This document shows positions 16,479 through 16,788 of a stretch of 33,007 bases of DNA, piece by piece. The DNA comes from a virus (Duplodnaviria > Heunggongvirae > Uroviricota > Caudoviricetes). The DNA lies in IMG/VR virus record IMGVR_UViG_2547132254_000003, positions 1 through 33,007 of that record; one strand, given 5' to 3'. The notes below the pieces were generated by a model. The model had not been told where the DNA came from and did no database searches. It saw nothing but the letters and a program-made list of their open reading frames with translations. The first letter of the stretch is position 1. The number at the start of each line of letters is the position of its first letter. The translations under genes and the position numbers were made by a program.

Positions 16479-16554
16479 GGCCCTTTAGCTCAGTGGTGAG
16501 AGCGAGCGACTCATAATCGCCAGGTCGCTGGTTCAAATCCAGCAAGGGCCACCA
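16479..16554 (+). tRNA. tRNA with anticodon CAU, Ile2 (lysidine)-like, 76 nt, CCA encoded
   Basis: Cloverleaf folds by eye; anticodon loop CUCAUAA; close to my memory of E. coli ileX. Ile versus Met cannot be decided from the anticodon alone. Confidence 0.75.
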
Positions 16555-16555
16555 G

Positions 16556-16632
16556 CCGCCACTAGCTCATCAGGAAAGAGCGTCAACCCTTTAAGTTGAG
16601 TGTGCGAGGTTCGAGTCCCCGGTGGCGGTCCA
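16556..16632 (+). tRNA. tRNA-like gene, 77 nt, noncanonical anticodon loop; identity uncertain
   Basis: All stems pair except one A-C mismatch in the T-stem; anticodon loop CCUUUAA has C at position 33 (normally U), giving nominal anticodon UUU; begins with C1-G72. Confidence 0.5.
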
Positions 16633-16634
16633 GT

Positions 16635-16710
16635 GCCGACTTAGCTCAGTAGGTAGAGCAACTGACTTGTAATCAGTAGGTCACCAGTTCGATTCCGGTA
16701 GTCGGCACCA
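16635..16710 (+). tRNA. tRNA with anticodon UGU (Thr-type), 76 nt
   Basis: Anticodon loop CUUGUAA; perfect 7-bp acceptor stem; one A-C mismatch in the T-stem at the same position as in the preceding tRNA. Confidence 0.6.
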
Positions 16711-16713
16711 TAT

Positions 16714-16788
16714 GCGGGCATCGTATAATGGCTATTACCTCAGCCTTCCAAGCTGATGATGCGGGTTCGATTCCCGCTGCCCGCTCCA
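16714..16788 (+). tRNA. tRNA-Gly (anticodon UCC), 75 nt
   Basis: Anticodon loop CUUCCAA; acceptor GCGGGCA/UGCCCGC; matches my memory of E. coli glyT. Confidence 0.75.

Follow-up and report, generated by a model that had tools for sequence, protein, structure and literature searches.

An argN-derived tRNA gene with a lysine anticodon and C33 in a remodelled tRNA array of an Escherichia coli lambdoid prophage

What is the second gene of a tRNA array in the late region of a lambdoid prophage, and is it still in use? The question is raised by a 33,007-nucleotide stretch of viral DNA, the IMG/VR record IMGVR_UViG_2547132254_000003 (hereafter the window, meaning the whole stretch that was analyzed), which carries four transfer RNA (tRNA) genes at positions 16479–16788. 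The second of these, tRNA 2 (16556–16632, plus strand), has the anticodon loop CCUUUAA. We find that the window is an Escherichia coli lambdoid prophage with the tRNA array in its late region, and that this region is a remodelled form of the ileZ-argN-argO array of Shiga toxin (Stx)-converting lambdoid phages, with its own conserved promoter. tRNA 2 itself is a homologue of argN in which the anticodon has changed from UCG to UUU and U33 has become C, and it deviates from the rules for elongator tRNAs only at U33. The case for its being functional looks evenly balanced, and it is with middling confidence that we propose tRNA 2 to be a selectively maintained, lysine-accepting decoder of AAA and AAG that is dispensable in some phage lineages. 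The initial annotation of the array, made from the letters of the window and their open reading frames, was largely right in what it observed and wrong in its evolutionary interpretation.

Four tightly packed tRNAs had been proposed for this region, and ARAGORN recovers exactly these, coordinate for coordinate and all on the plus strand. The Rfam tRNA model (RF00005, threshold 29 bits) scores tRNAs 1 to 4 at 72.5, 44.4, 73.8, and 64.9 bits, that is, every one above threshold; CCA is encoded in all four genes, and the spacers between them measure 1, 2, and 3 nucleotides. tRNA 2 is called Lys(ttt) by ARAGORN and tRNA-Lys by PGAP (NCBI's annotation pipeline), and its full reading is CCGCCAC-UA-GCUC-AUCAGGAAA-GAGC-G-UCAAC-CCUUUAA-GUUGA-GUGUG-CGAGG-UUCGAGU-CCCCG-GUGGCGG-U-CCA. 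This corresponds to a cloverleaf with stems of 7, 4, 5, and 5 base pairs, in which 20 of the 21 pairs are standard and A51·C63, the third pair of the T stem, is the sole exception. The canonical core is present (U8, A14, G18 G19, the T-loop GTTCGA, a purine at 37, and a 3′ CCA, read directly in the GGUUCGAGUCC region), as are C1-G72 and U73. Within the anticodon arm, UCAAC-CCUUUAA-GUUGA, the seven-nucleotide loop reads C32 C33 U34 U35 U36 A37 A38; direct reading thus confirms the C that had been noticed at position 33, where a canonical elongator tRNA has the U of the U-turn. The U36-A37-A38 determinant of N6-threonylcarbamoyladenosine (t6A) is kept. The anticodon U34 U35 U36 is that of tRNA-Lys(UUU), and these bases are the main identity elements for lysyl-tRNA synthetase (LysRS); the discriminator of E. 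coli tRNA-Lys is A73, in place of which tRNA 2 has U73. Standard tools, whose verdict had been named as a possible refutation, return a canonical cloverleaf and tRNA-Lys rather than a pseudogene, while C33 is still a true deviation. Single-sequence minimum-free-energy folding of the four tRNAs and argN was uninformative on tRNA 2, as the genuine host tRNAs also gave no cloverleaf.

By descent, tRNA 2 is not a lysine tRNA: it aligns without gaps to the Stx-phage argN (anticodon UCG) with 65 of 77 positions identical (84%), as against about 59% identity to host lysV. The two genes share C1-G72, U73, and the A51·C63 mismatch, and they differ in that argN has UCG and U33 where tRNA 2 has UUU and C33, G3·U70 where tRNA 2 has G3-C70, and G30-C40 where tRNA 2 has A30-U40. 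The G3·U70 wobble, found in argN of Stx2a_F349 (L001, 1617–1693) and in the PPompW-type allele (L002, L293), is a classic alanine identity element; the window allele has the G3-C70 pair. The arrays as a whole also correspond, since in the Stx-converting phages (Stx2a_F349, AP012530.1; phage 2851; VT2-Sakai) the ileZ-argN-argO array occupies the same place, after the antiterminator gene Q and a terminator and before the late genes, follows the same conserved promoter, and begins with an identical ileZ. Location, promoter, and ileZ place the window array in this family, and the link to ileZ-argN-argO arrays that had been suspected is borne out by the identity of ileZ and the homology to argN. 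The Arg(UCG)-Arg(UCU) content is absent from the window, in which exact thrU and glyT copies from the host stand in the place of argO, and no stx genes follow the array. Across 16 distinct members of the tRNA 2/argN family, 94.9% of cells pair, compared to 29–52% in slid control structures; four stem pairs vary on both sides, among them pairs 27-43 and 30-40 of the anticodon stem, by which Lys-type and argN-type genes can be told apart. The low Rfam score of tRNA 2 was considered as a sign of decay and then dropped: the argN alleles score alike (43.0–46.8 bits), and the low score is thus an inherited family trait.

All Lys-type copies in the samples have C33, and the IMG/VR scans found no U33 version of tRNA 2. 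When the tRNA 2 stem was sought together with a loop lacking C33, unrelated sequences alone were returned, and a scan for argN-type stems with C33 returned mostly chance matches in coding sequence, with no argN-family member that combines C33 with another anticodon. C32-C33 loops were seen in unrelated phage tRNAs from IMG/VR (L216, L228, L246, L282), namely in Thr(UGU) as CCUGUAA, in Gly(UCC) as CCUCCAA, and in Arg(CCU) as CCCCUAA (two contigs); C33 may recur among phage tRNAs, in a sample that was chosen for C33 and hence gives no frequency. A natural C33 elongator is also known in yeast, where tRNA-Leu(GAG) of Saccharomyces cerevisiae, with C33 in place of the near-universal U33, still decodes and works nearly normally, and where changing C33 to U has minor effects (PMC13492127). 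That tRNA is eukaryotic, has another anticodon, and has no link to phages or defence.

The other three genes bear on how the array was assembled. tRNA 1 (16479–16554, plus strand; anticodon CAU) had been likened to host Ile2(CAU) and is indeed an ileZ-type tRNA-Ile2: PGAP calls it tRNA-Ile, it matches ileX of host strain K-12 at 68 of 76 positions, and it is identical to ileZ of the Stx2 phage Stx2a_F349. tRNA 4 (16714–16788, plus strand), correctly recognized as host Gly(UCC), is an exact copy of K-12 glyT (75/75), and tRNA 3 (16635–16710, plus strand), a tRNA-Thr(UGU), is an exact copy of K-12 thrU (76/76). The initial annotation had instead taken tRNAs 2 and 3 for diverged duplicates that share a T-stem mismatch position, with tRNA 3 derived from a UCU arginine tRNA. 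It is true that the T stems of both genes contain an A·C mismatch and that tRNA 3 can be aligned to argO through the similarity common to tRNAs in general, but the mismatches lie at different pairs (51·63 in tRNA 2 and the fourth pair, 52·62, in tRNA 3), and tRNA 2 is 84% identical to argN. Because tRNA 3 is an exact copy of thrU, its 52·62 mismatch and its UGU anticodon are native to the host gene, and UGU is not a mutated UCU; a duplication is therefore almost certainly not what happened here.

A different origin is evident from two related viral contigs, L022 and L078, in which thrU is still followed by the spacer found in the host, TCAAGTCC, and then by the 5′ half of tyrU; these remnants show that a segment of the host operon thrU-tyrU-glyT was captured. 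They lie downstream of the ileZ anchor, tyrU breaks off at its anticodon loop (…GCAGACTG), and the sequence beyond it is unrelated in each contig. In E. coli, the thrU-tyrU-glyT-thrT operon lies upstream of tufB, and its thrU and glyT are identical to tRNAs 3 and 4. Compared to this operon, the window lacks thrT, has not carried over the host promoter, and has tyrU and both spacers reduced to 3 nucleotides (TAT), as would be expected if tyrU and both spacers had been cleanly deleted from the captured segment.

Is tRNA 2 maintained or decaying? Across 88 four-tRNA arrays from IMG/VR, mean pairwise divergence is 0.004, 0.018, 0.014, and 0.012 for tRNAs 1 to 4, respectively, as against 0.27 in the 80 nucleotides upstream and 0.24 in the 100 nucleotides downstream, and conservation falls right at the array edges. 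tRNA 2 is thus about as well conserved as its neighbours, against a divergence of approximately 25% in the flanks, which suggests selection, and the identical tRNA 2 allele is preceded by four or more upstream types that have diverged strongly. The opposite reading, which we consider possible and somewhat unlikely, holds that tRNA 2 is an inert relic, that is, an argN whose arginine identity was lost when its anticodon mutated and which is now carried along by the functional tRNA genes around it, perhaps transcribed and cut out, but neither charged nor used. Neutral drift of this kind would leave a broken cloverleaf or indels, whereas the window allele is intact and the gene is about 15 times less diverged in four-tRNA arrays than the homologous flanks, much like the thrU and glyT copies. 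The relic reading gains from the noncanonical C33, U73, and A51·C63 and from the lowest model score in the array, although argN itself scores equally low, and it gains further from lesions that arose repeatedly and independently (deletions in the D stem, in the anticodon arm, and in L091, as well as U8C). It is set back by the lesion load in 100 arrays, in which tRNA 2 (3 stem-breaking lesions, 4 gross ones) fares no worse than the copies of thrU (7 stem-breaking, 1 gross) and glyT (9 stem-breaking, 3 gross). Moreover, the common within-lineage stem variants of tRNA 2 are C-to-U changes that keep G·U pairs, and pair-breaking variants are singletons. These data suggest that tRNA 2 is kept by selection in four-tRNA arrays and is dispensable elsewhere.

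A gene of the tRNA 2 type is found in 798 of 5426 complete E. coli genomes (about 15%), and the whole four-tRNA block in 600, in a collection in which Shiga toxin-producing E. coli clones are probably over-sampled. Carriers include E. coli SMS-3-5 (NC_010498.1), whose array is exactly that of the window, and the inducible phages vB_EcoS-689R5 and PhiR47_1. Sampling of IMG/VR contigs by the family T arm gave 92 Ile-Lys-Thr-Gly arrays, 12 Ile-Lys-Arg(UCU) arrays, and 7 ileZ-argN-argO arrays. When contigs were instead sampled by the 3′ end of ileZ, the second slot held a Lys-type gene in about 120 cases, a pseudo-tRNA in about 50, and argN(UCG) in about a dozen, in addition to chimeras. In these approximately 50 loci (L128, L141, L137, L140, L175, and L202 among them), the second slot holds a degenerate, argN-like pseudo-tRNA with an 11-nucleotide "anticodon loop" and a T arm that consists of a run of 5 to about 16 G; it is not called by Rfam. 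RefSeq and at least one phage record already annotate the intact tRNA 2 allele as tRNA-Lys, and other phage records skip the gene. A literature search found no paper on the array, on the argN origin of tRNA 2, on its C33, or on its possible role.

Several observations weigh against a maintained lysine decoder, some of them in favour of the relic. Damaged alleles are common: Ile-Lys-Arg(UCU) arrays carry a one-nucleotide D-stem deletion or an anticodon-arm deletion, and these alleles and that of L091 are pseudogenes by the usual definition. A C4U/U8C/C11U haplotype is frequent, the alleles with the D-stem deletion and with U8C are called a tRNA by neither PGAP nor Rfam, and about half of the copies in a spread E. 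coli genome sample are alleles that PGAP leaves unannotated. A copy of at least 99% identity is found in only 279 of the 798 E. coli genomes, and the second slot of related arrays often holds an obvious pseudo-tRNA, the degenerate poly-G form described above. With a conserved gene on either side of it, tRNA 2 could owe part of its low diversity to a recent, cassette-like spread of the entire array. Nor can the direction of the compensatory stem changes be fixed without an outgroup, and there is none, because the family T arm, in a scan of one genome per species, is confined to E. coli and Shigella flexneri. C33, U73, and the mismatch in the T stem each speak for a lowered activity of tRNA 2. 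Finally, AAA and AAG are enriched just 1.17-fold in the late genes (50.1 per 1000 codons, compared to 42.8 in K-12); these are abundant codons served by several host genes, and being barely enriched they give no reason, in terms of codon supply, for the phage to carry a lysine tRNA.

The comparison of codon usage, which had been suggested as a check on the array, set the late genes (window 17083–32309; 4528 codons) against 42 K-12 genes (13916 codons), and it fits tRNAs 1, 3, and 4 but not the lysine tRNA. Per 1000 codons, ATA occurs 6.2 times in the late genes and 3.2 times in K-12, ACA 11.5 and 5.9 times, GGA 14.6 and 6.5 times, and GGG 21.4 and 12.0 times, that is, about twice the host level, and the three tRNAs would add decoders for AUA, ACA, and GGA/GGG. 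AGA (6.6 versus 1.1) and AGG (4.9 versus 0.6) are 6-fold and 8-fold commoner in the late genes, and CGG 3-fold, though the array has lost both ancestral arginine tRNAs.

How would a maintained tRNA 2 work? The gene is the old argN, whose anticodon loop has passed from CUUCGAA to CCUUUAA, with stem changes that keep pairing, and its product has a lysine anticodon on an arginine-type body. LysRS could charge this product through U34-U35-U36, and it would then decode AAA and AAG, C33 and U73 notwithstanding, though probably with a lower efficiency than the tRNA-Lys of the host. One conceivable use of such a decoder is the tuning of programmed frameshifting, in which the altered anticodon loop would change the G:GT ratio at the A AAA AAG site of the tail-chaperone genes G/GT. 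In −1 frameshifting at A AAA AAG, both slipping tRNAs are tRNA-Lys(UUU), and in the close relative L205 the last codons of G are GTT AAA AAA AAG TAG, with the T frame at −1 relative to G. This case is purely circumstantial, the array sits in a mosaic Q-lysis module that recombines freely with different structural modules, and a run of seven A breaks the slippery arrangement in the window; we therefore regard a role in frameshifting as highly improbable. The run lies at 28380–28400 in the tail assembly chaperone gene G (28029–28511, with the T frame from 28423) and has 8 A in L205, which is 99% identical. With 7 A, G is extended out of frame by 36 codons and T comes to lie at +1 relative to G; the shortened run may reflect an error in sequencing the homopolymer or else an inactivating mutation.

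A second conceivable use lies in defence. Recent work has shown that phages can overcome defences that cut tRNAs (PARIS, PrrC, retron Eco7, and P2-OLD) by means of tRNAs of their own; to our knowledge, every case tested so far involves a virulent phage and a tRNA that matches in amino-acid family. Among the competitors of lambdoid phages are the P4- and P2-type elements on which PARIS and OLD reside. tRNA 2 might accordingly be imagined as a nuclease-proof spare lysine tRNA, made by a temperate phage through the re-coding of an arginine tRNA, an idea that we consider unlikely. The UUU anticodon would allow charging by LysRS and reading of AAA and AAG, and the foreign body would remove the features that the nucleases read. 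By sequence alone, tRNA 2 does combine the anticodon of the host target with changes at nuclease recognition positions, as it lacks the published recognition features of AriB (the PARIS nuclease) and P2-OLD, and the base next to the PrrC cut site is changed. AriB needs U36AAUC|A41 and U16 (PMC12409363), whereas tRNA 2 has U36AAGUU41 and C16 (that is, G39-U40-U41 in place of U39-C40-A41, and C16 in place of U16). P2-OLD prefers paired CNG motifs at 28–30 and 40–42 (PMC12445682); argN has CAG/CUG at these positions, tRNA 2 has CAA/UUG because of the change from G30-C40 to A30-U40, and CNG motifs are also present in thrU and glyT. PrrC cuts 3′ of U33 (PMC2610378), and tRNA 2 has C33.

Precedents exist in that phage tRNA-Lys genes rescue infection from PARIS and PrrC170, which host tRNA-Lys does not (PMC12409363, PMC11555353). 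Like tRNA 2, the tRNA-Lys of T5 (against PARIS AriB) and those of SP15 and other phages (against PrrC170) are phage-encoded and carry the anticodon of the cut host tRNA; the T5 tRNA differs from the host tRNA at positions 39, 41, and 16, and tRNA 2 at 39, 40, 41, and 16 (PMC12409363, PMC11555353). The T5/SP15-type tRNAs are lysine tRNAs by descent, lie in large tRNA regions of virulent phages, and have been shown to be cleavage-resistant and to rescue infection, whereas tRNA 2, known here from its sequence, is an arginine-tRNA derivative with C33 in a temperate phage. Its differences at the nuclease sites are a lead rather than evidence, because any non-lysine body would differ from tRNA-Lys there. 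The array also holds Thr(UGU), the other prime target of AriB and P2-OLD. Protection from P2-OLD by the thrU copy was considered and dropped, since the copy is identical to the host gene and, in published work, extra host thrU gave little or no rescue. Some phage thrU copies in IMG/VR arrays do differ from the host gene, by A9G (11 loci), U16C (3 loci), or U20C (7 loci), at the equivalents of window positions 16643, 16650, and 16654, respectively; in tRNA-Lys, U16C has been reported to impair cleavage by AriB.

If tRNA 2 were charged and cleavage-resistant, anticodon switching would represent a route to counter-defence tRNAs, the counter-defence idea would extend to prophages, and the gene would offer a natural test case for the weight of U33 in bacteria. 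If it were inert, it would illustrate cleanly how annotation pipelines come to give the label tRNA-Lys to a gene that is drifting. In both cases the array has to be read differently, as two of its genes come from the host operon upstream of tufB and are not diverged phage duplicates.

The surroundings of the array agree with its placement after Q and with the proposal that it has its own promoter. The gene for the late antiterminator Q lies at 15589–16284 on the plus strand (Pfam PF06323, Phage_antiter_Q, 299 bits; its RefSeq homologues are antitermination protein Q). A putative pR′-like late promoter (TTGCAA-17-TATATT, plus strand, 9/12 matches in a consensus scan) follows at 16268–16296. Between it and the array, at about 16348–16378 on the plus strand, direct reading gives a hairpin followed by a T run, AAAACCCGCCCACAAGCGGGTTTTTTGT, which would correspond to tR′; the scan lists the same hairpin on the minus strand. 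A weak, sub-threshold match to isrK/isrJ at about 16301–16373 fits a short late leader RNA from pR′. The array's own sigma-70-type promoter (TTGCAA-17-TATTAT, plus strand, found by scan) lies at 16441–16469, and its −10 hexamer ends 9 nucleotides before tRNA 1. Across 55 distinct related arrays, TTGC and TATTAT are the best-conserved upstream positions, with majority frequencies of 0.95–0.98 and fixed spacing, compared to 0.69–0.8 at neighbouring positions, and the site is also present 5′ of ileZ in the Stx phages. The array would thus be made in the lysogen from its own constitutive-type promoter and in bulk during lytic growth through Q antitermination, and RNase P and 3′ trimming should suffice to release the tRNAs, given the encoded CCA and the short spacers.

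The gene order of a RefSeq prophage 99.2% identical to the window is Q, four tRNAs, holin, lysozyme, terminase, and head and tail genes. Downstream of several related arrays (L167, L143, L132, L128, L177, L131) lie the prophage small RNAs STnc100, AgvB, or AsxR; no match to these is present in the window between the glyT copy and the holin gene, an interval that holds two long inverted repeats at about 16796–16840 and 16850–16918. Elsewhere in the window, Rfam matches DicF, sok, and the RNA-OUT of IS10. The IS10 element lies within 11403–13115 (RNA-OUT at 11845–11914, transposase open reading frame at 11907–13115), inserted just downstream of a hok/sok locus (sok, 11403–11577), and is absent from the closest RefSeq relative. 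The same phage also encodes a tRNA-modification enzyme, the epoxyqueuosine reductase QueH, at 10649–11335 on the plus strand (Pfam PF02677, 221 bits). At 18849–19334, on the minus strand, a gene for a GNAT-family acetyltransferase separates the lysis genes from the HNH/terminase genes and resembles a moron-type insertion.

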